A DNA stretch of 64,000 nucleotides from Candidatus Micrarchaeota archaeon (GTDB lineage Archaea > Micrarchaeota > Micrarchaeia > Norongarragalinales > SBBD01), in NCBI GenBank assembly GCA_018819225.1, contig JAHJQN010000004.1, positions 160,001-224,000 on the forward strand, written 5' to 3'. Position 1 is the first letter of the stretch. Every line of letters begins with the position of its first letter. The position numbers were made by a program, and so were the translations under genes. Below the pieces are notes generated by a model. The model had not been told where the DNA came from, did not search any database, and saw only the letters and a program-made list of their open reading frames with translations. Of the stretch, positions 18,485-34,578 are shown one piece after another.

Positions 18485-21064
18485 TTATCCCCGCTTTCTA
18501 TAAAGATAAAGCGCGGCCGACAAAAAGAACGGAATCAGGAATACCGAAAAATCCGGTACACTTCCTGCCACTGCGTTAGGACGTTGGATCGAACACGTCG
18601 CGCTACCAAAAGAAGTCTCCGCCCTCAATTGATAATCGCCCGCCAGTTCCGTTTCAACAGAATAAGTTAACGCATTTTTTTCCTGACTGATAAACGAATT
18701 GGGCGAACCCGTCATTAATATGTCCGAATTGGAACACGCCACCCCGTTCTTCAAACACTGAACAACCACATTCGTCAAATCGGATGCAGTCAAACGGGGA
18801 CAATCCAGTAAAAGCAGATTCGATGGAGGCTGGGAATAATTGGGGTCCTGTGGGCCGTTGTTCCCGTCATTTCCATCACCCAATGCCACAATAACGATTG
18901 CTTGATCCTGACCTTCTGCACCCTCATCGTCCGTAGCCCATAACTGCACGGTATAAACGCCGACTTCCGTACAGGAAAGAAGGGCCGTCGCAGTAACCAA
19001 ATCGGTTCCAATCCCTTCATAAGCCATATCGTTCAGCGTACAAGGAGGATTGCTTATCAAAGACCATTCCGCTTGTTCGATAATGTCACCGGTATCCGAA
19101 GCGGTTCCCGCCAAAGAAATCGTTCCGAACACGTCAGCTGCATAACCGGATCCTGCATCCACAATCGGAGGCTCATTCGGCCCGCACGAACACGAAAACG
19201 GGTTGCATACATCTCCTGGATTCAGACAGTCGGAATCGTCTTCGCATGCTGCACCGCAAGAGCCTATGACACATTCGTACACTCCGGGAACGCACGAACA
19301 AGAGGTTGGGTTGGCGTCGCATGAAAAACCTTGGTACGTTTGCCCGCCCGAACAAGGAAGATTGCAGTCGAAATCATCATTGCATTCAGCGCCGCAAATC
19401 TGCACGGATTCCCAACACGTACCCGGAGCCCAATCTCCGAAAGAACATTCGCAGGCATCCGGACACCCAAACGTCCGTCTTTCAAAGATATTTGACGGCA
19501 TGCATTGCCATGCATCACCCGAGCAATCCGCATCCACCTCACATCCGCACGACTCTACGGTTGTACGAATACTGTCGACTACCGGCCTCATGGAACCGTC
19601 TGAAGTTCTCAATTCAGAGCGCCAACGCACCAGCGCCGAGCGGGGGTTCACGTTGTACCAAACGCCGGGAATAACGGAAGACCACGCGTTTCCCAAACCG
19701 TAATTCAGGAAATAGGATACCGATGTTAGAGGATCCAAGGCATCCACTTTCGTCAATTTCGCTCTTTTAATTTTTCGACCGTCATCCAGCACCGCACCGC
19801 CCAGATCCAAAGACTGGCCGCGCGCCAAGTCCGCGTAACGCGTTTTCGACAAGTCAATGAGAACGCCGCGATTCGGAAATTGGGGCCCACCGACACTGTA
19901 ACTCGTATACCCCGTTTCCGAAAACACGTCGAATCCATAAGCGAAATAAGCGACAGACCCAACGCTGCCGAACCATTTTTCTCCAAGCGATGAAATACCG
20001 TCGATGTTCGTCAAATCGAGTACGTAAAGGGGGTTTGGGTTTCGGGTCGATGAAAAACAAGTAAGATAACCGGTATGATCCTCGATTTGAAGGAAAATGA
20101 TTGTGCCAGGCCATTCGTTTTCGACGCAATCCGCAGGAAATTCCGGCGATGGAATGATGCGGCGGATCGATGGCGCGTTCGGATCGGAGACGTCTAGCAC
20201 ATAGAATTTTGCCAACTTCGGGGCCGTAAACGAATCGTCCGCGACCCAAAGAAATCCGTCGAGCCATTCCGCCTCCACTCCCCCGTCGATTAGAATATTT
20301 CCGCGAACTTGGTAATTGTTAATCAACGAAACATCCAGGACATGCATTCGGACGTCGGATGGGGAAATGATGTATTCCGCAACGTATAGGAAATTGCCTT
20401 GTTTCTCCAAAATTTTGGCCGTATTCGAGATTCCGGGCAACGTGTTACTAAAAATTTCAGTAGGCACAGCCGGAGTGGAAACATCGTATATAAAGAAAGA
20501 TGTTCCGAGCGTGGCGTACAGTCTGTCCCCGACAACCACCAACGAAGAATGCCCGCCGCGGAAATGCGATCCAACCAACACGGGATTCAACGGATCGGAA
20601 ATGTCCCATATGGACAATCGTTGGTCTCCTGCAAGCTTCTCGGAAAGGAACAAGTAATTATCGTCGTAATCGTAGGCCGTAACCATGCCATCGAGTTGAA
20701 ATTCGCGTTCGTACACCGGATTTTTTGGGTCCGACAAACCGTACACGATCATTCGATCACTAGGAGGTAGACAGGAGTTGACAGAGCCTCTCGGAAGGTA
20801 ATACAACGCCTGACCTTTTACTACGAGAGGAATCGAAACGCAATGACGGTAAAAACGGTCGGCCCACGCCAGATTTTCCAAAGACGGAATCAGAGGCAAG
20901 GTGAGTACGCCTGGAGGCGCCGTATCCCACGAAGCGTTCGTTTCCAAGATATCTTTGTAGAGTTCGTCCGTGAATTCTTCCGTGTAAAACGTTTCCTGCA
21001 ACGCGGTAGCGGGTAGGAAGAGAACCGCTAGGAACAGGAGCAACCGCAAACCATGATTTTTCAT
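18485..21064 (-). CDS. Cell-surface protein: LVIVD beta-propeller, Cys-rich region, PKD-like domain, PEF-CTERM-like tail
   Basis: Signal peptide; repeated (I/V)xD(V/I)SDPxxP; PPIVDAG...SLAG; C-terminal VPDF, TM, RKR. Confidence 0.8.
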   Translation of the reverse strand: MKNHGLRLLLFLAVLFLPATALQETFYTEEFTDELYKDILETNASWDTAPPGVLTLPLIPSLENLAWADRFYRHCVSIPLVVKGQALYYLPRGSVNSCLPPSDRMIVYGLSDPKNPVYEREFQLDGMVTAYDYDDNYLFLSEKLAGDQRLSIWDISDPLNPVLVGSHFRGGHSSLVVVGDRLYATLGTSFFIYDVSTPAVPTEIFSNTLPGISNTAKILEKQGNFLYVAEYIISPSDVRMHVLDVSLINNYQVRGNILIDGGVEAEWLDGFLWVADDSFTAPKLAKFYVLDVSDPNAPSIRRIIPSPEFPADCVENEWPGTIIFLQIEDHTGYLTCFSSTRNPNPLYVLDLTNIDGISSLGEKWFGSVGSVAYFAYGFDVFSETGYTSYSVGGPQFPNRGVLIDLSKTRYADLARGQSLDLGGAVLDDGRKIKRAKLTKVDALDPLTSVSYFLNYGLGNAWSSVIPGVWYNVNPRSALVRWRSELRTSDGSMRPVVDSIRTTVESCGCEVDADCSGDAWQCMPSNIFERRTFGCPDACECSFGDWAPGTCWESVQICGAECNDDFDCNLPCSGGQTYQGFSCDANPTSCSCVPGVYECVIGSCGAACEDDSDCLNPGDVCNPFSCSCGPNEPPIVDAGSGYAADVFGTISLAGTASDTGDIIEQAEWSLISNPPCTLNDMAYEGIGTDLVTATALLSCTEVGVYTVQLWATDDEGAEGQDQAIVIVALGDGNDGNNGPQDPNYSQPPSNLLLLDCPRLTASDLTNVVVQCLKNGVACSNSDILMTGSPNSFISQEKNALTYSVETELAGDYQLRAETSFGSATCSIQRPNAVAGSVPDFSVFLIPFFLSAALYLYRKRG

Positions 21065-21143
21065 GATAAAACAACGCCATAAGTCAATTTAATGGTAACG
21101 ACTGCGAGAGAAGCCGGAAAACTCCGATAAACGGTTAGAATAT

Positions 21144-22805
21144 TCACGCATCCCGAGATCGAGGAGGCTCATTTATTATTTTCGTTTGCCCTTGCCTTGA
21201 TGAAAAATAAATGGCGGCTGTCACTATAACAACTACCAACGCGAAAGCCAGTGCAGCATACTTACTAGAAACACCGTACGCGGCCTTCCGCACGTTCCGA
21301 ACGAACGAGCCCCAGGCATCCCGTGCTTCCAGCTCGCGTTTCTCGCGCATGTATTCCTCGTAGACGCGAAGAGCGGCCTCTGATTCCTGCGGATCCTCGC
21401 CCAACTGCTTCAAACGCTTCAGCACCTCCGTCTTGTCTTCGTCGGAGACCGCGCTTCCCATGTATGACCAATCCACGGCCACTTCGTCGTTATCCTGTTG
21501 AATTGTTTGCTGAACGTTTTCTGGAATTATTGAGCTCGACGGAATAGGGGTTTCGTTACTATTACCAAGCGGATTGTCCGTTGGAGTCCCCGGAGGTTGA
21601 GAAGGAATGGGGGAGGGAGTCGTGGTAGGCGGTAACGGAGCTGTGGGCGAAGCGTTTCCAGGCGGTGTTGGTTGAGCAGGAAACGCGGGCAACGTGAATT
21701 CGAGCGTTCCGTAACCATTTACTACCGCATTAAATTCGTGCTCCTCTCCTTGCAAGCTAAATGAAAAAACGTAAGGATTATGATAACTCATTCCCTGCGT
21801 GCTGGAATTCGTATGGTTGAAAAGGGGGATCCACGCTCCTTCCTCCCCGACATTCGTTTCAAAAACGATTTCTCCGGATTGGTCACGAACCGTGAGCTCA
21901 CCTGATGCAGGGGAACCATCGGAGTAGAACAACTTGACGAGCACGTCCCAGCCAATGGCGAACTTCCAATTCATCCAAGCCGGGCCCGTGTTGGGAGCGA
22001 ATCCCTCGGGCGCATTAAGAAACCGATTGAATCCGTTCTGTTCGATGTCTTTTTCGTTGTTATTAAATGTGGAATTGCGGATCGTGAACATGTTGCTGGA
22101 ATGGGATACGCCGTAAGTGAGGTTGATAAATGAATGGTTAACGTAGGAATTGGAAGCGGTGTTGTCGTCATCAACCAACCCGTAAGTGGAATATTGCTCG
22201 CGGTTTCCTAGTATCGTGTTGTGCTCGATCCGATTGTGGCGGGCTCCTCCGGACTCCGGGTTGTCGGATATGACGATGCCCAGGAGGTTACGTTCCAGCA
22301 TATTGCTCTTGACAAAATTGAAATTCGCCCTCTCGAAACGGTAGGAGGCCAAAATGGCGATCCCGGTTTTCGCATCCGACACCCGATTGTTCTCTATGGT
22401 GCAGTTGTTCACGGTTTGGAGACTGACACCTGCACTCTGGAGGGAATGCAGGACGATTTCGTTTCCCCGCACGGAACAAAAATCTGACCGTTCACCGAGA
22501 ATGGCGGTCGGCACGCCATGCTCCCACGGATATTCCGTTGCTTGCAACCGGCAGTTGGCAATGGAAACATTTGGCGCATTAGTAAAATTGATGCCACGGT
22601 AGTAAAAAATGATGGAATGGCCTGCGCAGTCAAGGCCTACGTCGCCGGAAATGATGTTGAAACACGGTGGTTCCAGCGAGGTGGAAACGTTGTTGGCCAG
22701 CACGTAAGCGCCCGGTTGATCGATTACGGAACAGGACGTGAGCACTTGCGCTCCCGCTGTCCCGATTCCCACTAAGAATGCCAGCAACAAGAGCGCCTTT
22801 CGCAT
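21144..22805 (-). CDS. Surface protein with right-handed parallel beta-helix (NosD/CASH-like), Pro-rich linker and C-terminal TM
   Basis: Signal peptide; LDCAGHSI, NxTIxNN repeats. Confidence 0.8.
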   Translation of the reverse strand: MRKALLLLAFLVGIGTAGAQVLTSCSVIDQPGAYVLANNVSTSLEPPCFNIISGDVGLDCAGHSIIFYYRGINFTNAPNVSIANCRLQATEYPWEHGVPTAILGERSDFCSVRGNEIVLHSLQSAGVSLQTVNNCTIENNRVSDAKTGIAILASYRFERANFNFVKSNMLERNLLGIVISDNPESGGARHNRIEHNTILGNREQYSTYGLVDDDNTASNSYVNHSFINLTYGVSHSSNMFTIRNSTFNNNEKDIEQNGFNRFLNAPEGFAPNTGPAWMNWKFAIGWDVLVKLFYSDGSPASGELTVRDQSGEIVFETNVGEEGAWIPLFNHTNSSTQGMSYHNPYVFSFSLQGEEHEFNAVVNGYGTLEFTLPAFPAQPTPPGNASPTAPLPPTTTPSPIPSQPPGTPTDNPLGNSNETPIPSSSIIPENVQQTIQQDNDEVAVDWSYMGSAVSDEDKTEVLKRLKQLGEDPQESEAALRVYEEYMREKRELEARDAWGSFVRNVRKAAYGVSSKYAALAFALVVVIVTAAIYFSSRQGQTKIINEPPRSRDA

Positions 22806-22851: not shown

Positions 22852-24654
22852 TTATTGGTCCGCAAACGTCGCCGGATTGATGAACATCGGTTGGTTGTTT
22901 CCGTATACTTCCAACAAGTGGTTCGGGAACGGAGAAAGCGTATCATGAACCGTTCCAAATGCACCGGACCAGTCGCCTGCGTACGCCTCCGTTGCAGCAC
23001 AGGCTAGGCCAATGCAGATTGCCGCAGGTCCCAAATACCTTTTTCCATTAGAAGCAAGCCGTAACAGGCTACGGCCGAGCAAACGGGACTCCGACTTGAG
23101 TGCCGATGAGAAAAGACCGGACTTGATCGCTCCTGGAACGTATTTAAGGGGCGTCTTGAGTACTTCACGATATTCGGCTATCCACGGAGATTTGGCGCTG
23201 GTCCAATAAAAACGTTCGAACGACTTAAAGCCTCCAAGCGCTGCAACTTCTTCTGCCTGCAATCCAAGCGGATTGAACCGCTTGGTCAACGTGGCCTGAA
23301 CGCGCGTTGCCGCATATTCCTTCAACACGTGGCTTTTTGCAGACGCTGATCCTAGATAAGTGCGTTGCGGGATGCCAGACGACCTTTTCAACAACTCGGA
23401 ATTGGAATGAACGCTTTGGAACTGGCCCAAGGCATGCGAAGCCTCGTGAGCGAACACGCCGATGTCGACATTACCCGGGAATACGAGTAATTTTTCCGAC
23501 GCGTCGAAAAACGCTTTATTCGTGTACGGATTAATTCCGACTTGATAACCTGCCTTTATGGGAGCCAACAACCTGCTGAAACCGGATGACGCAAGCGTAT
23601 CGTAATGGAGAGACAAACCGCTCGGAAGGTTTCCGACAGGAGGACCACTCTGAAATCCGTCAGGATCCACGAACTTTAACGGGTTGTTTTCCGCATACGC
23701 GTACGAATTGCCTGTTCCGTCGAACAACGGATCGACGGCCAAAAACCTCCCGATGGAAGGATGGTAGTATCGCGCGCCGAAATACGCAAAACCGCTAGCG
23801 TCAAGCTCGTTTCCGGAAAACTTGAAAGGAGTCAACGCGGCAGGAGACAATGCTTTCCCGAACGGTTCGTAATGCGAATTGCTTACTACCACGGTATCGG
23901 AATTGACGTCTTTGGAGACCACGCGCGAGCTTCCAAGGTAGTCAGCGGCCACGTACTCCAATTGCTTGACTCCCTGGCGCGGCACTTCCTGGGCAACCAG
24001 TTTATCCCCGCCGTAATAGAATTCGGAAGCAGCCGGAGATGGGGTAGGAGTCGGCGTAGGCGTGTTGGTAACCGTTGGGGAAGGCGTCGGAGTGTTCGTC
24101 ACCGTTGGAGTAGGCTCGTTATAGTAACAATTTCCAGAACAGCACACCAAGGTTTCAGAACAGTAGCCTTGGGGGCGGTCATAGCACTGGTAGAAATCCG
24201 AGCACGAACCCGGTAAGCAACGGGAATTCACGTAATAACCGCAGGGAGTAGGAGTCGGTGAGGCCGTCGGTGCTCCCGGACAATTTCCACTACAACAGAC
24301 AAACCCCGTTGAACATCCTTGAATACCGTCACCTACACTATGACAGTCTTGACCAAATCCAAAGCAATAAGAATGCTCACCGTCTTGAGCTACGCAGCGT
24401 CCACCCAATTCATTGCAGAACGCGCCTCCACCGCCTCCACAGTCTTCGCCAATACAGTTACCCATACCGGGCTCAATAAGGCCAATCCAACCTAGGGAAG
24501 ACGCTATACCGCTCGCACCCTTCCAGTCTAAGGCTATCCAAATTATTGCGAGGACCAACAATATGGTGAAAAAGGCTGCCAATGTTTTCTTCGTGAACAA
24601 AGAATGGGTGCGCTGGTGCCACGATTCCTTTTTTCTCCGTTGGCTGGTTGGCAT
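22852..24654 (-). CDS. Membrane-anchored RHS-core protein with C-terminal HExxH effector
   Basis: Basic N-terminus and TM, two Cys-rich repeats, PT linker, DYLGS/YEPFG/ELDASG/ARYYHPSIGRFLAVDP/NSYAYAENNPLKFVDPDG, then ~267-aa tail with HEASH. Confidence 0.88.
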   Translation of the reverse strand: MPTSQRRKKESWHQRTHSLFTKKTLAAFFTILLVLAIIWIALDWKGASGIASSLGWIGLIEPGMGNCIGEDCGGGGGAFCNELGGRCVAQDGEHSYCFGFGQDCHSVGDGIQGCSTGFVCCSGNCPGAPTASPTPTPCGYYVNSRCLPGSCSDFYQCYDRPQGYCSETLVCCSGNCYYNEPTPTVTNTPTPSPTVTNTPTPTPTPSPAASEFYYGGDKLVAQEVPRQGVKQLEYVAADYLGSSRVVSKDVNSDTVVVSNSHYEPFGKALSPAALTPFKFSGNELDASGFAYFGARYYHPSIGRFLAVDPLFDGTGNSYAYAENNPLKFVDPDGFQSGPPVGNLPSGLSLHYDTLASSGFSRLLAPIKAGYQVGINPYTNKAFFDASEKLLVFPGNVDIGVFAHEASHALGQFQSVHSNSELLKRSSGIPQRTYLGSASAKSHVLKEYAATRVQATLTKRFNPLGLQAEEVAALGGFKSFERFYWTSAKSPWIAEYREVLKTPLKYVPGAIKSGLFSSALKSESRLLGRSLLRLASNGKRYLGPAAICIGLACAATEAYAGDWSGAFGTVHDTLSPFPNHLLEVYGNNQPMFINPATFADQ

Positions 24655-24669
24655 GTCCGAAAACCTGTT

Positions 24670-27600
24670 TCAACTACAGCTGATCCCGCTGACAGGAACA
24701 TCCGATAACGTCTGGATGACGTTGCCCCCACTGAAAGCGTAATAGGTAGCAAGTGCTTGCGAAGCGGTTTTAACGACTTTTTTCACGCGGTTGCCGCTTT
24801 CATCGTAATAGTATTGCTCGCAGTTTCCGTTCGCATAACGAATCCGCTTCAAGTTTCCTTCGTAATCGTAATCCAGTTGCCGATCGTAAGATGAACCGCC
24901 GACGCAGTTCGTCATACTTATGACGTGGCCCTGCGAGTCGTACGAGTAAAGACAGCCATTTCCTGTTCCGGCATCTCCTGCACGCTGCAACCGGTTGGTT
25001 CCCGAATAGTACGAATACGTTCGCGGGGGTTCATCCGAATCCTCTTCCGTCATTCGGTTGCCCACGGAATCGTACGAATATCCCATCATGCCTTGCGGGA
25101 AACCGTAGTATCCGTCGTACGCCCAAATGGCGGTCAAGCGGTCAAGGGCATCGTATGAGAAGGCCGCGCCTTTCCCGAGATCCGTCCGGTGCAACGAATC
25201 CAAATTCCCTCCGGGAGTGTAAGCGTACGTTTCCTGCCACAACGGATCCCCATTTTTCGCATAAAACGAATCCGATTCCAAAAGGAAACGGTTATCGTAA
25301 TCAAAGGATTGCCAGGCGTCATGCCCAAAAGTAATACGACTTTGCCGATTATACCCATCGTACGCATATTTTGCGAGTCTCGCGAACGCTCCGTTGAGAG
25401 GCTTCCGCAGGATTTCATCTAATCTTCCCAACGAGTCGTACAGATATTTTATTTGCGTTCCTCCAGGATAAGTCGCTATTTCGAGGAGACCCGCGTTATT
25501 GTAGGTATATGTCAGCCGGAAGCCTACCGAAGAGAAAGGCTTGCCGTTATTGGACTGGAACCGCGTGCATTCGCTTGCGGTTACCGATCCATCCCTATCG
25601 AAGTCGAGCATGGGATGGTAGTACGATCCGGCGTAAGACGCAGGGGTATTTGAACACGTCTGACCCATCTCGGTTACATCCGACGAATCCACGAGGCCAT
25701 CCATATTGATGTCAGGGCACCCGTAGGAAAACACTTCCCCAGTGTCGGTTCGTTTGCACGACCCATGGAAAAACTGCGTTTCCCGCGAGACGTATGCTCG
25801 TGAGTCGTATTCAAACCAATGCGCCGTAACTTTGTTGGATGAAGCAAACAATTTTCCTTTATGGTAAGGCGACGCGGAGGAATCGAAAGTATAATAGCGA
25901 TCAGGAACCCCTCCGAACGACACTTTGCGCAGCCGGTTTATCGCGTCGTATTCGTAATTGAATATTTTTTCGCCTCCGTTCACAGTTTTCGTAACCTCGT
26001 TTCCGGCATCATCATACGCGTGATGGAGTGAACCCGCGTCCGGACTAGAAACGTCCGTGGCACGGCCCAACAGATCGTATACGTTAACCGAAATCAAACC
26101 ATTTGGAGCGAACACCGTGGTGGGCCGCCCAGCGGAATCCCGTTCGTACCACGTAACCCCTCCAGTGGGATCTCGTTCCTCATAAACGCGCCCAAGAGAA
26201 TCGAGATACGACATGTACAAGTTACCACCCGTATCGGAAGAAACGGAGATACCGGGAGTTTCCGCATTATTCTGAAACGAGTCAGCGAATACCTGGAAAT
26301 GTTTGTTTTTCTGCCGGTTGCTGACGACGATGCGCGCTGTAACGCCGTCCGCATAAACACTCGCCCGATAGGAATGCCCCGCTTTCAAGAAAACCGTCCG
26401 CCTGGAATCGGTGACTTGGGGAGCGTAAAACCCGTAAGAACACGTATGCATCGACACCCGACCCACGTAATTGTTCCAAAGTTCTGAAGAGGTTATCGTC
26501 AGGTCTTCAAGTTGTGCTGAAGCAATGTCACCATCTTCCGCACCAGATATACTACAGTAAACGTCGTAGAATCCATCAGATGTAATCATAAAACCAGTCT
26601 CTCCATAACCGCTCGATCGACTAAGATCCGCCCATACCGCTGATTGCACTACTTCCCAGGAAGGCTGGCTTCCCGCAGGGTAGTCGGCCTCCAGAATTCC
26701 TTCCGGAGAATCAGCGAATTCTTTCCTCCAATAGACAGGAGGCAACGAAGCCGTATGCGGTACCGACGATTGAACAATCCGCGAGTACGCGTCGTACGCT
26801 GTTTCCGATATCAAGTCCGAATTGCCGTTCTCGACTTCCGTTCGAATAAGCCTTCCCAATCCATCGAAGTAGCTACGCGTTTCCTTCCAAAGCTCGCCGG
26901 AAATGCGTTCCCGTTCGGTTATGCGGTTAAGGTTTGAACCGGATAACGCTTCGCCAGCAATATAATAATCAAACGTCGTAGACGGAGTTGAATCTCCCGG
27001 TTTCAAGACCGTTCTCAAACGACCGAACTCGTCATAATTATACGTTGTGCGGCTTCCGTCGGGTGCGGTCATACGTTCGAGCATGCCTTTGGAATTGTAT
27101 TTGTACGTCGTTGCTAGCCCCACAGCGTCTTCCGTACACGTGATGAGAGCGTGCGCCCACTGGCCACCTCCGTTGCTGCATTGGTCGTTGTTCCCGAAAT
27201 AAAGCAGAGTTTGTTTTCCGTTCTCATCGCGCTGGAGAGTGGGATTGCCGTACGAGTCGTAAGAATCCGTGAACGAAACGACTTCCGAATTCGCAGTTTT
27301 CGACTCATGAAATTCCTTCGGCCTCTGTACTCCCGAAAAATCGGAATAGACGTTTCTTGAAGATGCAACCAGTTGTCCGTTGGAAGTAACTTGGGAACTC
27401 TTGACTTCAGAAAACCGATTTGCATCGGCCAGCAGATCATTGGTTTCCCATTCATACTCATTTGTGACCACGCGTTCGTTGAAACCGCCGGGCTCCACCG
27501 TCGTTGAACGCATAAAACCATTAACTCCGTCGTCCACGTAATCGTACGATGTTTTCGACCCCACACCGCGAACAGCGGACTCGATCTCCATTGTTCGGGA

Positions 27601-30231
27601 CAGTCTCGAATACTGCTTAGCGATTTCATTTCGACCGATCACTTTACCCATTAGAACGGAATGGTCGTAATTATTCTCGGTAACGGAAACAACGCCTCCA
27701 CGAGCATCGTAAGTCGTGGTCCGAATCGGAAGGCCGTGCAAATCCGTGGAATCAAATCTCCCTCCGAATCGTTGGCCTTCAGGGAGTTCCATCGCATCGC
27801 AGTTGCCGTCCGCGTTACCGTCAAAACAAGTGTAACCCCCATCACCCGAATAATAAGTCACTTTAAGGTGCGCATCATGATTATCGGAATCCGAACACGA
27901 ACCGTACATGGGAATTAACCAGTAGGTTCCGGATGCTAAATCGTTACCGTTGTTGTTTTTCCACCTCAATTGGCAATAACCGTCGGAATCCGTCGTGCAC
28001 TGAACCCCCACATTTTGACCTGCACCAAACGCTTCAACATCAACGTTGGGAGGGCCGAAAAAGAGCGTGGGCTTGCTGGCCGGGTTTCCTCCAATGGAAA
28101 GGGGATAGTTTTCACAGTTGTATCGCGAGCGGACATAAATTTTTCCCGTGCTGGGAAAATCAATTGAAGTCGTGAAATCGTTAACGGTATAACCGTAAGG
28201 AGCGATGGGCTCTACTTCTAAAAAGTGGTCGGAAGTAACGGTCGTAACACGGGAATAACGAACCTGAGCCGGAGTATATCCGCCTCCGAATGACAAGCGG
28301 TCTTCTCCAGCAAACCGAGTTCTCGATCGCGGTTCCAAGGAAGCCACTCCGGAGGTCTCACCACCCGAGTAAACATCATCGTATCCGTCATCCTCATCCG
28401 CATCAAACGGATGGACATTATAGAAATAACGCGTGTGAAAACAATTACCTAGGCCGTCACATGTTGCCATTAGGGATACTCGGGCACCTCCACCATAATG
28501 GGCGTCGTCGCGGTTTGCGAAATTGTTTCCAAAGAGGAATTGGTCGGGGTAGAAGTTGTTGACGCGGTTGTAGCGATCCGATTCGTAAAAAATGGAGGTA
28601 TCGCCACCGGTGGGCCACGTGATTTTGGAAAGCGACCAAACCGTAGGATCTATGCGCGAGGCACCTTGCGGATTGTCGTCATAAGCAGAACAATCCGCGC
28701 AATAATAGCCCCAGCGGTCCGACTTGTATTTCTCGTAGCGCGGATTGGAATATTGGCCTGGGGCGGCATCCTGCGCGTATTCGAATATCGTGGTCTGCAG
28801 CTTCGTTCCGTCGCTCCCGTGTTCTTCGATGCGTTCGAGGGCCAGCCGGCCTTTTCCATCTTGTTGAACGTCTAGAGAGCCTACTGCCAATAAATTCGTC
28901 TCGTGAATTAAGTTAACGCTCTTAAGCTCGTTGCTGAGGTCGTTATTGGAATACAGGCGGATGGAACGCAGACGCGGAGCTTGTGCGGAAAAGTCGCTAC
29001 TGAAACCATCGAAACGCGCATCGTCGTAATCAAGGAACGCGGTATGCGTATCCGTCTCGATGCGGCTGAGAACTTTCACTTGCGTAAACAGTTCGCTTTT
29101 TGCATGCCAATTGTTGTTATCCAGAACGTTCCAAGACCCGTCGTACGGGTACTTGACTCTAAATAAGGGTTCCCACTCGTCATAGAAAAAGGAAATGTGA
29201 TTTGATCCGTCAGGGGATGTAATCGATGATAGCATCCATTCCGTATTGAAATCCTTGAGGAAACGCATCTCATAGAATTCGCTCGAGTCATGAGAATTTT
29301 CGCTGCGGGACATCAAGGCATGCGCTTCACCAAGAGGTTTGAACACCGAAACCGTTCCGCCGTTCCCGCCATATTCGTATCGAGTACCGTCGACCGTTGT
29401 AACCGTGAATGCGTTGATGGTTCCTCCGGATTTGCTCATCAGCACTTCTTCGGCAAATCGTTCCGAAGAGCCAATTTGAAGGTATCCTTTCGACTTGGAA
29501 AAAACGAAGGAATCCTCTTGTGCGTACAAGATGCGCCCTGCCACATCACTCCCCGTGACGAAAAAGATATCGGGCGTGACATTGTCCGAACCGTTGAAAT
29601 AATTGGGATTATTTGAATAAAAATAGCCGGTAGCCCCTCCTTCGTTGCCATTTCCGTTCACCACCAATTCGTCGCACGGAATAGAGCGGCCATAGGTATC
29701 CGCATGATCGGGAAGCGGATCAATATTAAGCGAAAAAACCGCGCGCCCCTTGGCCGAACTTCCCGTAATCAACATCGTCATCACAGACGGAGCAATCGAT
29801 GTGACGAATTTGTTGAAATGCACAAGCAAATACCCGAATTTGAGCCATGGATCACCACTGCACTTAATGAATTGTTCCGTTCGAACCGTATCGCCACCGG
29901 ATGGATAATACTCGTCGGGAATGCCGATGACTTGACGGCTCACGGATCCGACATCCAAACTCCAGCCGAGGCCCACGGAAGAAGCGAATTGCTCCAACGG
30001 AATACCCGCCGTGTAACGAAGCGTGACCGGAAAGTCCATTCCCCCTCGGCCGGGAACGGTCATCACATTGAGGGGAAGCGAAAAATCTCCAGTGGAGAGG
30101 TCGACGGAAGCGCTAGATGAAGCGTCTTGAAAAGAAGAAGGCACCGGAGAAGTGGGAGCAGCCGATGTACCAGTTGAAATCAATGTCAGAAAAAAGAAGC
30201 TTACCAGGAGATGAATTTCGCGCGATTTCAT
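24670..30231 (-). CDS. Secreted YD/RHS-repeat shell protein (SpvB/TcB-like N-terminus) lacking the RHS core
   Basis: Signal peptide; VDLSTG..VPGRGG..LRY..VGLGWSL; many YD-G-R repeats; two DxN/DxDG Ca-binding loops; ends before the core motif. Confidence 0.88.
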   Translation of the reverse strand: MKSREIHLLVSFFFLTLISTGTSAAPTSPVPSSFQDASSSASVDLSTGDFSLPLNVMTVPGRGGMDFPVTLRYTAGIPLEQFASSVGLGWSLDVGSVSRQVIGIPDEYYPSGGDTVRTEQFIKCSGDPWLKFGYLLVHFNKFVTSIAPSVMTMLITGSSAKGRAVFSLNIDPLPDHADTYGRSIPCDELVVNGNGNEGGATGYFYSNNPNYFNGSDNVTPDIFFVTGSDVAGRILYAQEDSFVFSKSKGYLQIGSSERFAEEVLMSKSGGTINAFTVTTVDGTRYEYGGNGGTVSVFKPLGEAHALMSRSENSHDSSEFYEMRFLKDFNTEWMLSSITSPDGSNHISFFYDEWEPLFRVKYPYDGSWNVLDNNNWHAKSELFTQVKVLSRIETDTHTAFLDYDDARFDGFSSDFSAQAPRLRSIRLYSNNDLSNELKSVNLIHETNLLAVGSLDVQQDGKGRLALERIEEHGSDGTKLQTTIFEYAQDAAPGQYSNPRYEKYKSDRWGYYCADCSAYDDNPQGASRIDPTVWSLSKITWPTGGDTSIFYESDRYNRVNNFYPDQFLFGNNFANRDDAHYGGGARVSLMATCDGLGNCFHTRYFYNVHPFDADEDDGYDDVYSGGETSGVASLEPRSRTRFAGEDRLSFGGGYTPAQVRYSRVTTVTSDHFLEVEPIAPYGYTVNDFTTSIDFPSTGKIYVRSRYNCENYPLSIGGNPASKPTLFFGPPNVDVEAFGAGQNVGVQCTTDSDGYCQLRWKNNNGNDLASGTYWLIPMYGSCSDSDNHDAHLKVTYYSGDGGYTCFDGNADGNCDAMELPEGQRFGGRFDSTDLHGLPIRTTTYDARGGVVSVTENNYDHSVLMGKVIGRNEIAKQYSRLSRTMEIESAVRGVGSKTSYDYVDDGVNGFMRSTTVEPGGFNERVVTNEYEWETNDLLADANRFSEVKSSQVTSNGQLVASSRNVYSDFSGVQRPKEFHESKTANSEVVSFTDSYDSYGNPTLQRDENGKQTLLYFGNNDQCSNGGGQWAHALITCTEDAVGLATTYKYNSKGMLERMTAPDGSRTTYNYDEFGRLRTVLKPGDSTPSTTFDYYIAGEALSGSNLNRITERERISGELWKETRSYFDGLGRLIRTEVENGNSDLISETAYDAYSRIVQSSVPHTASLPPVYWRKEFADSPEGILEADYPAGSQPSWEVVQSAVWADLSRSSGYGETGFMITSDGFYDVYCSISGAEDGDIASAQLEDLTITSSELWNNYVGRVSMHTCSYGFYAPQVTDSRRTVFLKAGHSYRASVYADGVTARIVVSNRQKNKHFQVFADSFQNNAETPGISVSSDTGGNLYMSYLDSLGRVYEERDPTGGVTWYERDSAGRPTTVFAPNGLISVNVYDLLGRATDVSSPDAGSLHHAYDDAGNEVTKTVNGGEKIFNYEYDAINRLRKVSFGGVPDRYYTFDSSASPYHKGKLFASSNKVTAHWFEYDSRAYVSRETQFFHGSCKRTDTGEVFSYGCPDINMDGLVDSSDVTEMGQTCSNTPASYAGSYYHPMLDFDRDGSVTASECTRFQSNNGKPFSSVGFRLTYTYNNAGLLEIATYPGGTQIKYLYDSLGRLDEILRKPLNGAFARLAKYAYDGYNRQSRITFGHDAWQSFDYDNRFLLESDSFYAKNGDPLWQETYAYTPGGNLDSLHRTDLGKGAAFSYDALDRLTAIWAYDGYYGFPQGMMGYSYDSVGNRMTEEDSDEPPRTYSYYSGTNRLQRAGDAGTGNGCLYSYDSQGHVISMTNCVGGSSYDRQLDYDYEGNLKRIRYANGNCEQYYYDESGNRVKKVVKTASQALATYYAFSGGNVIQTLSDVPVSGISCS

Positions 30232-30492
30232 GAATTTATTATGTATCGTACGCATATTAAAATCTTGGTTAAAACGGCTTCAAACGTGTTGGAAAGTGTC
30301 CAGTGAGTAGTCACGCACTTTCATTTTATAGAATGAAGTTGAAAAGCATTTTCGGACATAAGGGTAAATCATCAAGGAGTGCACGGCGAGGACGTGTAAG
30401 CGACAAAATGGCATTCCGAAGTAAACGGAATCACCCGTTTCAGCATAACATACCGTGTTAGACGTTCGCGGACACACGCTTTTATAGATTAG

Positions 30493-33400
30493 ATGAATAG
30501 TTTTCGCATGACACGCATTCTGTTCGCAGCAGTGTTGTGGACGCTCATATTTCCAATTGTTTCAGCCGCCAGCATCAATAGCCCGATTATGCTCGAGGAA
30601 TACTTCAATCAAGGAACGCACTCCGGCACGGAAGTCGTCGCGGGCAAACTGCAGCTCGTTCAAGGCGGCGGACAATACGTAGCTAGCGGCACCTGGGTTT
30701 CACCGGCATTCGATGCAGGAGGAAGCGCGCTCTGGAATTCAATGGAAGGAAGCGCCAATTGGGAAGCGTTCGGCCTCAACCTTATCCAGAATGGGGGGTT
30801 TGAACAGCCGCTTGAAGGCTATTGGTACACCAGCGCGAATCGCGGTACCCAGGACTGCACGGACCGTTTTTCAGGCTCTTGCTCGATGAAGCTGGTTAAT
30901 CCGGCGGGAGAAGCCTCTGCAACATTCCGATCGCAAATCAATCCCAGTGGCGGACAGGAATCCGAACAGCACAACATTTTCCGCGTGCTGCCAACAGAAA
31001 CCGTACATTTTACTGCCAGGTTGAAAACAGATATTCCTTCAGGAAAACTGAGTCCGATGCTGCTGTTCATGAAGAAAACGGCCGATGGACGGTATTACGA
31101 TCAGCCCATGGTCGGCAGCTGGCGCGGAATTCCCGAAGTCTGGTTTGGCGGTAGGACCGGAGAGTTTGTACGCTTCCAAGGCGAATGGCGCATGGACGAG
31201 TACCTGCCCAACGATGGCGGGGAATACTACGGTTACCCTTACGCAGGACTGGAATGGCTTACCAATTTCGCTCCCACGAGAACATTCAAATTGGACGATA
31301 TACGGATATTCAAGGACTCCCGCATTAAGGTTGAGGCGCGTACGACGGACGCGCCGGACTGCACCGACATATCCAGCAAAACGTTTTATGGACCACGACT
31401 TCTTTACGACAACGAGATCGCTATTCCTGCTCCGGGAGCCCGATGCATCCAGTTCCGGCTCACATTCACGCGAATCGACTCGACGCATACGCCTGAATTA
31501 AACTCGCTTTCAGTAAAATTCTCCCGCGCGTATCCGTTTACTCGACCAGCCCTCGACACCGTTCCCGCGCCATTCAATTACATTACAAACAATGTGGACT
31601 CCCAAGGCCGCGTGGTTTTGGATCCATCCGATGGTGAACTACGCTACCAAATAACCGGAAAAAAAGCCAAGTTTTTCGGTACCCAAATCGACCCGATACC
31701 CGACGGATTTACCCCGGATACGTGGGGGGATTACATCTGCCATTATGCCGAAAAATACGGTTTCAACTTGATCAAGATGCTAGAGGACAGCGCCCGTTAC
31801 GGCGTGTTCATTGAATCCGAGGCCGATGTCCGGGCGGGACTGGATAAGATGGTTCCATTATTCCGTTCGTGCAGGGCGAAAGGAATTCGGATGTTTTTCC
31901 GAATGATTCCAAACGGATACCTTAACGGAAGACTGGGCAACCACTTGTGCGATGCCTACTACTGCGGCTCATTTGAATTCGTGGACGATCAGGTAACTGA
32001 AACGTTTAAGGAATACGCAAGCATCATCATGAATTACCAGTACGACAGCAGGAGAATCGGCGACGACCCGTTGTTTGTCTTCGCGGAACTCATGAACGAA
32101 TACTCGCTTTTGCAGAACTGGAAGCGCGACCTAGTGGACGGCGCATACAACAACGGTTACGTTGACCGCGGAGAACTCTCCCCGTATTGGGCGGAAAAAC
32201 TGCAATTCAATTTTAACGCGTGGGTGCGACAAAAATACCCGACTTACTCGTCGTTGGTTGCTGCTTGGCAAGTACCGGGTCAAGGCTCGCCCATTGTTGC
32301 GGATGATGGTTCCTGCAACGAATTAACGTATTCCGATCCCGCGGTTTGCCATCTAGCCATTCTCAAGTTCTCGTCATACCATTCATACGACGTTCCCCAC
32401 GTCCGTTATGCCGCGCGAATTCGCGACCTCGTAGAATTCATTGTCCAGCGTGAAGAACGATTCTATTCCCAAATGAAGCAGCATATACAGACTCAAAGCA
32501 CGATGCTCGTTGCGGGAGGCAAACCGCACTGGGAGCTCTTCCCGGCCAACGGCGTTTCCACAGAGAACTTGGACCTCGTCGATCAACATCCGTACGTTAC
32601 CGCCACCGACCAGATAACCAAAGGCTCCAAAACGTTCTTGGTAGTGACGGACCAAAGCGTCATCAACCAATACGCTGACAAACTGTTGGGTAACAACCTA
32701 TGGAAGGGACGTTACGTCGGTAAAGCGTTCGTTGCCGGTGAAACAGGGGGCTCTCCATTTACGCAGTACGCTCCCGAAATCATGCTCGTGCCAACACTGG
32801 GGGGCCACGCCGGATGGGATGCCTCCATATTGTTTATGATGGGCTTTGCTGCCTGGGATGTCAACCACGAAGGCATGGGCACTTGGACGGTGCAACGCAA
32901 TTCTCCGTTAGTCGCCCTATACCCAACTGCTTCGCGACTGTTTCGACGGGACATGCCTAAAGCCGAAAGCCGTCCGCTTTACATGAAGCGGTCAACCGCA
33001 TTAAGTTACCCACAGACCTGGCCGTTCTACATCGGATACCGGGACCCGGCAAGCACACTCGTTTACGACGTGTCATGGGCGAGCTCGAATTACGGTTCCG
33101 ACGTACTGCCCTCAATTCCCAACGAAATCACGCCTCCATACGTGGCCAGCACGGGAGCCATGGTCTACGACACGGTAAATGAACGCGTTACTGTCAACAC
33201 TCCCGGCACGCAAGGAGGGTACGGCAACTTTGAGGGATTTAATGCCGATTTAGGTTTCCTGTCATTTTCAATCCCTAAACTTCAAGGTCTCAAGAGCGTC
33301 GCAGTTTTCGCTACAAGTCTCGACAACCAACCGTTAATGAGTTCGCAAGACGTTCTGGTGACGGTTTCTTCAAACGCCGACAATTCAAAACATCTTTGGG

Positions 33401-34578
33401 ACACCTATCACCGACGCGCTGAAACCATTGGAGAAAACCAGCCTTGGGGTCGCAACCCCGTACTCATGTCCACTGTTGAAACCGATATTACTTTGTCCAT
33501 TGCTCACATTGTAACCGTATACCCGTTGGATTCCGAAGGAAGGCGCGTGCCTGGGCAGGCATTCGAGCTAACGCCCTCAAATGGCCGAGTTTCATTTTCA
33601 TCCGTTCCCCGGCACGCCACGCCATGGTATGAAATCACTTCCGAATGCTCCGACCTTTGCGTCGAAGGCGAACAGACGTGCGTCAGCGATACGGAATACG
33701 CCGAATGCGGACAGTACGACGCCGATGCATGTACTGAATTAGGGCCTCCCCAACCTTGCGGAATGGTTTCATGCGATGCAGGCATTCATTTAGAGGGATC
33801 TTGCGACAAACAATGCGTTCCAGGCGATATCGACGGCATGACATGCGCCGATTGCGTGCCCGAATGCATTTGCGAAGAAGGCTGGGAGGATGAGGATGGG
33901 GATTCCGTCAATGGATGCGAGTATTGCCAAGAGGAATGGACTTGCACGGAATGGAGCGAAGGAACTTGCGGCACGCGCACTTGCGCCGACGGAAACGATT
34001 GCGGTACCGAGGACGCCAAGCCAGAGGAAGAACGTTCCTGTGACAACAACGTTCCGTCAAGCCCACCGCCTTCAGGAGGCAATGATGGAGGAAGTAATTA
34101 CGGCGGTAGCCCGACACCAACTCCGCATGTATCGCCAACGGACCAACCAACGCCCACTGAAACAGGCCAAACCCAGTTCGTAACCATACCCGAAACCGAT
34201 AACGACATTGAAAACGCCATTTTGGAACTTCCGGATGGGGAAGAAAAGATGGCTTTGCAACAGATCATCTTTGAGGCGAAGAAATTGGAAAAGAACGGTA
34301 ATACGGTTGAAGCCCGCATGCTTTGGGCGAAAGCGAAAGAGCGTTTGATCGCCCTTCTTGCCAACGCCCGAGCCAATAAGGCGAATTATTACTATGGCTT
34401 CGGATTAATGGTTGTGCTGATCATCGTCGCGGCAGCAACCTATTATGCGTCTACGCTACGAAAACCGCCCTCCCAACCACCGACGCCTAACGAGGCCATC
34501 CAACTCCCTGCGCTTCCGTCAGAACCGCACCCGCCGAAGTACAAGACGGAAATCACTCTGTTCAATCGGCATGAATAA
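30493..34578 (+). CDS. Membrane-anchored glycoside hydrolase (clan GH-A, GH5-like) with CBM-like domain
   Basis: Signal peptide; NLIQNGGFE CBM start; ELMNE acid/base, DQHPY, VAGETG nucleophile; Cys-rich and PT stalk; C-terminal TM (start may be 30508). Confidence 0.75.
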   Translation: MNSFRMTRILFAAVLWTLIFPIVSAASINSPIMLEEYFNQGTHSGTEVVAGKLQLVQGGGQYVASGTWVSPAFDAGGSALWNSMEGSANWEAFGLNLIQNGGFEQPLEGYWYTSANRGTQDCTDRFSGSCSMKLVNPAGEASATFRSQINPSGGQESEQHNIFRVLPTETVHFTARLKTDIPSGKLSPMLLFMKKTADGRYYDQPMVGSWRGIPEVWFGGRTGEFVRFQGEWRMDEYLPNDGGEYYGYPYAGLEWLTNFAPTRTFKLDDIRIFKDSRIKVEARTTDAPDCTDISSKTFYGPRLLYDNEIAIPAPGARCIQFRLTFTRIDSTHTPELNSLSVKFSRAYPFTRPALDTVPAPFNYITNNVDSQGRVVLDPSDGELRYQITGKKAKFFGTQIDPIPDGFTPDTWGDYICHYAEKYGFNLIKMLEDSARYGVFIESEADVRAGLDKMVPLFRSCRAKGIRMFFRMIPNGYLNGRLGNHLCDAYYCGSFEFVDDQVTETFKEYASIIMNYQYDSRRIGDDPLFVFAELMNEYSLLQNWKRDLVDGAYNNGYVDRGELSPYWAEKLQFNFNAWVRQKYPTYSSLVAAWQVPGQGSPIVADDGSCNELTYSDPAVCHLAILKFSSYHSYDVPHVRYAARIRDLVEFIVQREERFYSQMKQHIQTQSTMLVAGGKPHWELFPANGVSTENLDLVDQHPYVTATDQITKGSKTFLVVTDQSVINQYADKLLGNNLWKGRYVGKAFVAGETGGSPFTQYAPEIMLVPTLGGHAGWDASILFMMGFAAWDVNHEGMGTWTVQRNSPLVALYPTASRLFRRDMPKAESRPLYMKRSTALSYPQTWPFYIGYRDPASTLVYDVSWASSNYGSDVLPSIPNEITPPYVASTGAMVYDTVNERVTVNTPGTQGGYGNFEGFNADLGFLSFSIPKLQGLKSVAVFATSLDNQPLMSSQDVLVTVSSNADNSKHLWDTYHRRAETIGENQPWGRNPVLMSTVETDITLSIAHIVTVYPLDSEGRRVPGQAFELTPSNGRVSFSSVPRHATPWYEITSECSDLCVEGEQTCVSDTEYAECGQYDADACTELGPPQPCGMVSCDAGIHLEGSCDKQCVPGDIDGMTCADCVPECICEEGWEDEDGDSVNGCEYCQEEWTCTEWSEGTCGTRTCADGNDCGTEDAKPEEERSCDNNVPSSPPPSGGNDGGSNYGGSPTPTPHVSPTDQPTPTETGQTQFVTIPETDNDIENAILELPDGEEKMALQQIIFEAKKLEKNGNTVEARMLWAKAKERLIALLANARANKANYYYGFGLMVVLIIVAAATYYASTLRKPPSQPPTPNEAIQLPALPSEPHPPKYKTEITLFNRHE

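Follow-up and report, generated by a model that had tools for sequence, protein, structure and literature searches.

A candidate two-chain RHS cocoon in a Micrarchaeota archaeon, with plug and payload encoded apart from a secreted shell

The closest described relatives of the locus reported here are the BC cocoons of the Tc toxins (TcdB2-TccC3 and YenB-YenC2) and the B/C gene pairs of Bacteroidota. They share with it a cocoon made, or in our case proposed to be made, of two chains, an SpvB-like start, an aspartyl plug with the PxxxxDxxG motif, and a payload of about 25 to 30 kDa. In the published structures that we considered, one chain comprises both the plug and the shell repeats that precede it, so that the cargo is caged while the protein folds. 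The plug seals one end of the cocoon, and the N-terminal domain gates the other (PMC8765631). Secreted RHS toxins of the TcdB/TcaC type (PMC3482391) have in common with our locus a signal peptide, an SpvB start, RHS repeats, and variable tips of the metallopeptidase or papain-like kind. The Rhs effectors of type VI secretion systems (T6SS), such as RhsA (7q97), Tre23, and Tse5, have a homologous shell end and plug followed by variable tails. In teneurins, too, a YD shell sits on a Cys-rich stalk that is anchored in the membrane. Bacterial teneurin-like proteins (PMC13018210) resemble the system proposed below in keeping a toxin in a shell without an obvious delivery machine.

The window that we analyzed is a 64,000-nucleotide stretch of the genome of a Candidatus Micrarchaeota archaeon, and all features of the two genes described here lie on its minus strand. 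The upstream gene (24670 to 30231) encodes a secreted RHS/YD shell of 1,853 aa that has no RHS core. An alternative in-frame ATG at 30255 would extend it to 1,861 aa; the public gene calls give 1,853 aa. A TATA-like TTTAATA (30255 to 30261), 30 nt ahead of the ATG at 30231, is the probable promoter of a two-gene unit made up of shell and plug. No TATA-like element was found upstream of the plug gene, and the next gene downstream, at 22805, has its own. The first 24 residues of the shell (30160 to 30231) are hydrophobic and are predicted to be a Sec signal peptide, which we regard as probable, and an equivalent hydrophobic N-terminus is present in 4/4 close shells. Such close relatives amount to only three 50% clusters, and database searches with the shell are dominated by generic YD proteins.

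The first-pass annotation of this DNA had described an SpvB/TcB-like start. The SpvB likeness stands, weakly for this shell alone (29917 to 30093; E 0.052) and with matches in 4/4 close shells (best E, 1.9e-6), but no TcB likeness was found beyond it: Pfam returned no TcB propeller family, and the N-terminal half of the shell had no PDB match. That half is homologous to the TcB-like first gene of the Bacteroidota two-gene B/C RHS pairs, for example the Jejuia pair of 1,701 plus 1,390 aa. The YD/RHS repeats match RHS_repeat (PF05593, E 2e-20), TIGR01643 (E 3e-12), and Rhs proteins in the PDB, and there is a DUF6443 match too. Profile searches placed no TIGR03696 core in the shell, in agreement with the earlier description of a shell with a signal peptide and YD repeats that lacks the core. 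Within a shell loop lies a dockerin-like EF-hand pair (25570 to 25713; PF00404, a weak match) that is kept in 4/4 close shells and that the first-pass annotation had not noted; no cohesin partner was found for it in this genome. Elsewhere, a coreless metagenomic shell with a dockerin-like end, recognized by eye, is followed by a secreted cohesin gene (L078:407-5944; PF00963, E 3.5e-6). The last YD strands (24673 to 24813) were placed by alignment with single-chain Rhs proteins and with RhsA (7q97) profiles. By this alignment the shell stops one strand short of the RHS plug, and the break coincides with the turn before the first plug strand.

The downstream gene (22852 to 24654) encodes the plug and payload in 600 aa and starts 15 nt past the shell stop, the gap (24655 to 24669) containing AGGT, a ribosome-site-like word. 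It opens with an n-region of 23 aa and net charge +6 that leads into a hydrophobic helix of 19 aa at aa 24 to 42 (together 24529 to 24654), in this copy probably a type II signal-anchor. The motif SGIASSLG that follows the helix (24490 to 24513) fits the xG(F/I)(A/V/I) pattern of the anchored class described below and is possibly a processing site. For this genome, the motif was rejected as a genome-wide sorting signal, given 3 matches in 1,303 ORFs, two of them apparently due to chance. Next comes a stalk with 18 Cys, built of two Cys-rich modules ending in CCxGxC (24127 to 24417) and a Pro/Thr stretch (24025 to 24114). The Cys module had no Pfam match. Counting this plug, 11 or more surface proteins encoded in this genome share it (on contigs C2, C4, C5, C7, and C8), a recurrence that would suit a spacer in an anchored protein.

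The RHS sequence resumes at EFYYGG (aa 211), and the TIGR03696 core covers aa 262 to 333 (E 4e-21). Neither Pfam nor a profile search against solved Rhs proteins found shell repeats ahead of the plug. The core/plug (23656 to 24024) contains R295, D308, and D330, the PxxxxDxxG motif, and DPDG at 23667-23656. All three residues are invariant in 38/38 cores aligned, and the two aspartates correspond to D651/D674 and PxxxxDxxG of TccC3 (PMC7861908). The sequence and the TIGR03696 match thus bear out the first-pass picture of a partner gene with its own ATG, basic N-terminus, transmembrane helix, Cys-rich stalk, DPDG core, and 267-aa tail. As read from the DNA, the two genes are intact and adjacent, complement each other at one strand, and bear separate predicted export signals, and the autoprotease residues of the plug are kept.

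The same arrangement recurs in relatives. RHS cores were found in 10/11 genomes of this Micrarchaeota family, compared with 12/401 genomes of a phylum sample. Counting similar genes in the present genome, as the first-pass annotation had proposed, gave exactly two shells and two plugs. The shell of the second pair (C2:343304-350748; L001:12003-19447) is 31 to 33% identical to that of the window and has the same end strand. The second plug bears a signal-peptide-like export signal of its own. Its stalk, rich in N-x-S/T sites, differs from that of the window plug, and its tail, hydrophobic and Gly/Ala-rich, is unrelated and has no family match.

A search of relatives for the same breakpoint was also fruitful: 12 coreless shells end at one same strand, T-x-Y-x-Y...GNVI-x-E, after which there is a stop or a dockerin, Cys-rich, or Pro/Thr appendage. 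In a shell of 3,331 aa (L023:2278-12273), about 950 residues are inserted before the last two strands, and the end strand is again the same. By eye, this insert is Cys-rich and propeller-like; the gene is flanked by one cleaved-type and one anchored-type plug. In all stand-alone plug genes with a complete start (17/17), a hydrophobic segment at the N-terminus and a stalk precede the RHS sequence, which picks up at the next strand. Throughout this type the core has a gene of its own and is never on the chain that holds the last YD repeats. In single-chain Rhs structures the shell and core profiles are contiguous (836-1159 and 1154-1291 in 7q97; 625-1026 and 1032-1151 in 8h8a). Single-chain RHS genes and true orphan cassettes do occur in the same family (G005, G009, and G010) and constitute another subtype. 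In genus g4 (G003, G006, G007, and G010) the shell itself is split over two or three genes in a row, and every piece has a signal peptide of its own (L029:6873-13449, L027:4592-11236, L031:7858-11935, and L036:1-3010). At a Nanoarchaeota locus (L081:7419-11268), a signal peptide is fused directly to a degenerate plug without DPxG, and the shell that comes after it is made up of secreted pieces.

The place of the cut distinguishes this type from the systems named at the outset. Tc and Bacteroidota pairs are cut in the middle of the shell, whereas here the cut comes after the last YD strand, with the B and C parts of the shell fused and the plug and payload separate. TcC combines half of the shell with the core and tail; the partner here is free of shell repeats. 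Each chain, unlike those of Tc toxins, has its own export signal. Compared with the TcdB/TcaC type, the plug and tip form a separate exported or anchored gene, and the integrin-like propeller was not detected; Pfam scans of the pair and close shells found neither FN-plug nor NHL families. Whereas teneurins and teneurin-like proteins consist of one chain whose anchor precedes the shell, two genes are involved here, and the anchor is on the plug chain. Orphan rhs modules (PMC7043789) have no delivery part, but each of the plugs here begins at a start of its own and brings along an export segment and a stalk. The stand-alone plugs also differ from T6SS Rhs proteins and orphan modules in having no adjacent co-oriented immunity gene.

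The first-pass claim that no T6SS is involved agrees with our searches. Neither PAAR (PF05488) nor VgrG (PF05954) was found in this genome, which is 90% complete, and the controls matched. The TcA families PF18276 and PF03538 had no match in this genome, nor in the control genomes, and no translocation device lies beside the window pair. The locus has the repeats, catalytic core, and hypervariable tail of RHS/YD polymorphic toxins; it has neither a core on the same chain nor an adjacent immunity gene. It is a variant of the RHS polymorphic toxins and would work much as a BC cocoon of Tc toxins does, or a secreted RHS toxin of the TcdB/TcaC type. We found no description of a plug-only split in the literature searched, which mostly excluded subscription papers.

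Relatives also bear on whether shell and plug must be neighbors. In G001, the shell closest to that of the window (contig C12) is followed by a housekeeping gene, and two plugs of the matching clade lie elsewhere, on C57 and C40, where the roughly 18 kb read around each contained no shell. Over 390 aa of plug and tail, the C57 plug shares 31% identity with the plug of the window (E 7e-44). Three plugs surround one shell cluster in G006, and G003 likewise has three plugs. These cases, with several plugs per shell in relatives and an unlinked matching pair in G001, speak for the earlier idea of action in trans with exchangeable payloads. In the plug tree, clades follow shell types (support, 89/82 to 100/99), and G001 has two shell types and two plug clades. 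The pattern is consistent with partner specificity; support for the window's own clade is moderate (89/82), and kinship accounts for part of the correspondence. Since the family keeps both anchored and released plugs for each shell type, often with more plugs than shells, one shell can probably carry different payloads. We consider it likely that shell and plug assemble in trans, and the recurrence of one cut point throughout the family makes it probable that assembly of the cage takes place outside the cell. Because shell and plug would cross the membrane separately, caging may be possible after export.

The variable tail of the window plug comprises 267 aa (22855 to 23655). It contains HExxH (23448-23434) and, close to its end, a hydrophobic segment with CxxxxC, and is probably a zinc peptidase payload. 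A protein database search returned the tail itself alone, and the PDB returned nothing. Fold leads toward zincins stayed below threshold (feature score, at most 0.78; TM, below 0.5), and the single-sequence model had a pLDDT of 35. The tail's one homologue (29% identical, E 2e-16) keeps HExxH and the hydrophobic CxxxxC, the third zinc ligand being not clearly conserved. All 19 tails are 185 to 267 aa long (mean, 235) and mostly unrelated in sequence. Tc cocoons hold about 30 kDa (PMC8765631), close to these tail sizes, and the size limit fits a Tc-sized cage. By eye, 12/19 tails have peptidase motifs (6 HExxH, 5 Cys-His-(Asp), and 1 caspase-like); one tail is kinase-like (Pfam E 1.6e-5), and Pfam found no nuclease family among the tails.

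Our preferred reading, to which we assign a probability of about 0.6, is a two-chain RHS cocoon assembled outside the cell. The shell and plug genes would be cotranscribed. Sec would export the shell, and the partner would stay behind as a type II membrane protein, N-terminus in, with its disulfide-rich stalk outside. The first strand of the plug would pair with the last strand of the shell and so close the open end, leaving the unfolded tail of about 29 kDa inside, and D308/D330 would cut after DPDG. With the plug sealing one end and the N-terminal domain gating the other, a stalk on the plug would point the SpvB-like end away from the cell, from where the payload would be released on contact. 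The payload would be a zinc peptidase acting on envelope proteins of a neighbor or host, and peptidase-rich cargo in combination with the lack of an injector does point to a target at the exterior of another cell. That the payload is caged and used against other cells seems likely to us. We found no precedent in the literature for a folded shell taking up a tail through one open end. More tentatively, and with rather less confidence than in the cocoon itself, we propose that this DPANN archaeon exports empty RHS shells of one to three pieces along with separate plug-payload cartridges that are loaded outside and either displayed on stalks for contact or released. Without any delivery machine, their payloads, mainly peptidases, would breach or reshape the envelope of a cell that serves as host or prey. 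The locus makes directly testable how an RHS cocoon is loaded and opened without a T6SS or TcA, a question stated as open for bacterial teneurin-like toxins (PMC13018210), and offers a specific candidate mechanism by which archaea with reduced genomes could affect neighboring cells.

Membrane tethering appears to be one of two modes among the plugs. We classed the N-termini of the 17 complete plugs by eye. The anchored type (9/17, including this plug) has mostly a long basic n-region, a helix of 15 to 24 residues, and an xG(F/I)(A/V/I)-like motif, and the cleaved type (8/17, including the second plug of this genome) has a short n-region and a signal-peptidase-like small-x-Ala site. Both types are present in each plug clade, and G000 (this genome), G001, G003, and G006 each have one cleaved plug and one to three anchored ones. 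The same two-chain cocoon could have a partner whose N-terminus is cut, by signal peptidase or at the post-helix motif, and would then be released or held by dockerins rather than by a stalk. Besides the mixture of types within clades and the signal-peptide-like paralogue, a possible cleavage site after ASG in the window plug and the dockerins of the shells, one of which adjoins a cohesin gene in a metagenome, are in keeping with this alternative. Against it, the 23-aa, +6 n-region and 19-aa helix of this copy contrast with cleaved-class n-regions of 4 to 14 aa and +1 to +3, several members of the anchored class have Phe at the would-be −3 position, and no cohesin was found in this genome. We hold a cut partner to be unlikely here and think that this copy probably stays anchored. 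The tether claimed in the first-pass annotation is retained as likely for this copy, which resembles a type II anchor, but not as a defining feature of the system.

Departures from the preferred two-chain cocoon that go further appear less probable still. The shell could dock on the plug merely as a scaffold, with the tail outside or shed, giving a teneurin-like surface adhesin or enzyme display that serves attachment or feeding, not killing. Teneurins are themselves type II proteins with an empty shell (PMC8765631), the locus sits amid anchored surface proteins, the payload motifs are mostly those of peptidases, and no immunity gene, PAAR, or VgrG was found. Teneurin plugs are uncleaved, however, whereas the aspartate pair is kept in these plugs, and tails that are largely unrelated and yet tightly limited in size are what caged cargo would be expected to look like; we regard display as improbable. 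It is harder still to see the two genes working independently, the plug as a stand-alone self-cleaving release module and the shell as an unrelated surface protein. Several plugs lack a neighboring shell, one shell lacks a neighboring plug, and some contigs are short, but exact strand complementarity at one conserved break, repeated adjacency in both gene orders, and the agreement of plug clades with shell types make this very improbable. We give almost no weight to a sequencing error, a pseudogene, read-through, or a classical orphan rhs cassette. The shell TGA is in frame with the partner ATG, a point that the first-pass annotation had not noted, but homologous pairs, whose gaps measure 11 and 2 nt, do not preserve this frame, and no stop codon is used more often in this genome than TGA; read-through was rejected on these two grounds. 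Two other assemblies (ENA and Logan), possibly from the same sample, match the 7,501-nt region at 100% identity. The first-pass view that the split is neither a frameshift artifact nor an orphan module was upheld: 210 non-RHS residues with a membrane helix intervene and homologues conserve the breakpoint, and true orphans, in G005, repeat their parent's YD sequence and have no export segment, as opposed to 17/17 complete plugs that have one.

No immunity gene lies beside the window pair, and the next gene, at 22805, encodes a 553-aa beta-helix surface protein. On both sides (18485-22805 and 30493-34578) the pair is surrounded by surface proteins with C-terminal membrane anchors; besides the beta-helix protein, the neighbors include an LVIVD-repeat protein and a divergent 1,361-aa protein that is glycoside-hydrolase-like by eye and has no Pfam match. 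A convergent gene that encodes a membrane protein with a basic and then a hydrophobic part comes after 6/8 cleaved-type plugs, all in relatives, and after 0/9 anchored-type plugs (L029:13548-14147, L040:3370-4212, L034:3095-3868, L036:5985-7310, L031:7210-7689, and L049:8669-9400). The genes after plugs are homologous neither to each other nor to the tails, and the convergent membrane proteins are possible outside-facing immunity proteins. Beside the G008 plug (L034:5582-11999) are genes for a dockerin-bearing M36 peptidase and for a 1,507-aa surface protein with GFAI, the post-helix motif of anchored plugs. Just past the second RHS pair of the present genome (L001:8680-10281; C2:339981-341582), genes resembling those for ubiquitin-conjugating E2 and JAB proteins were recognized by eye.
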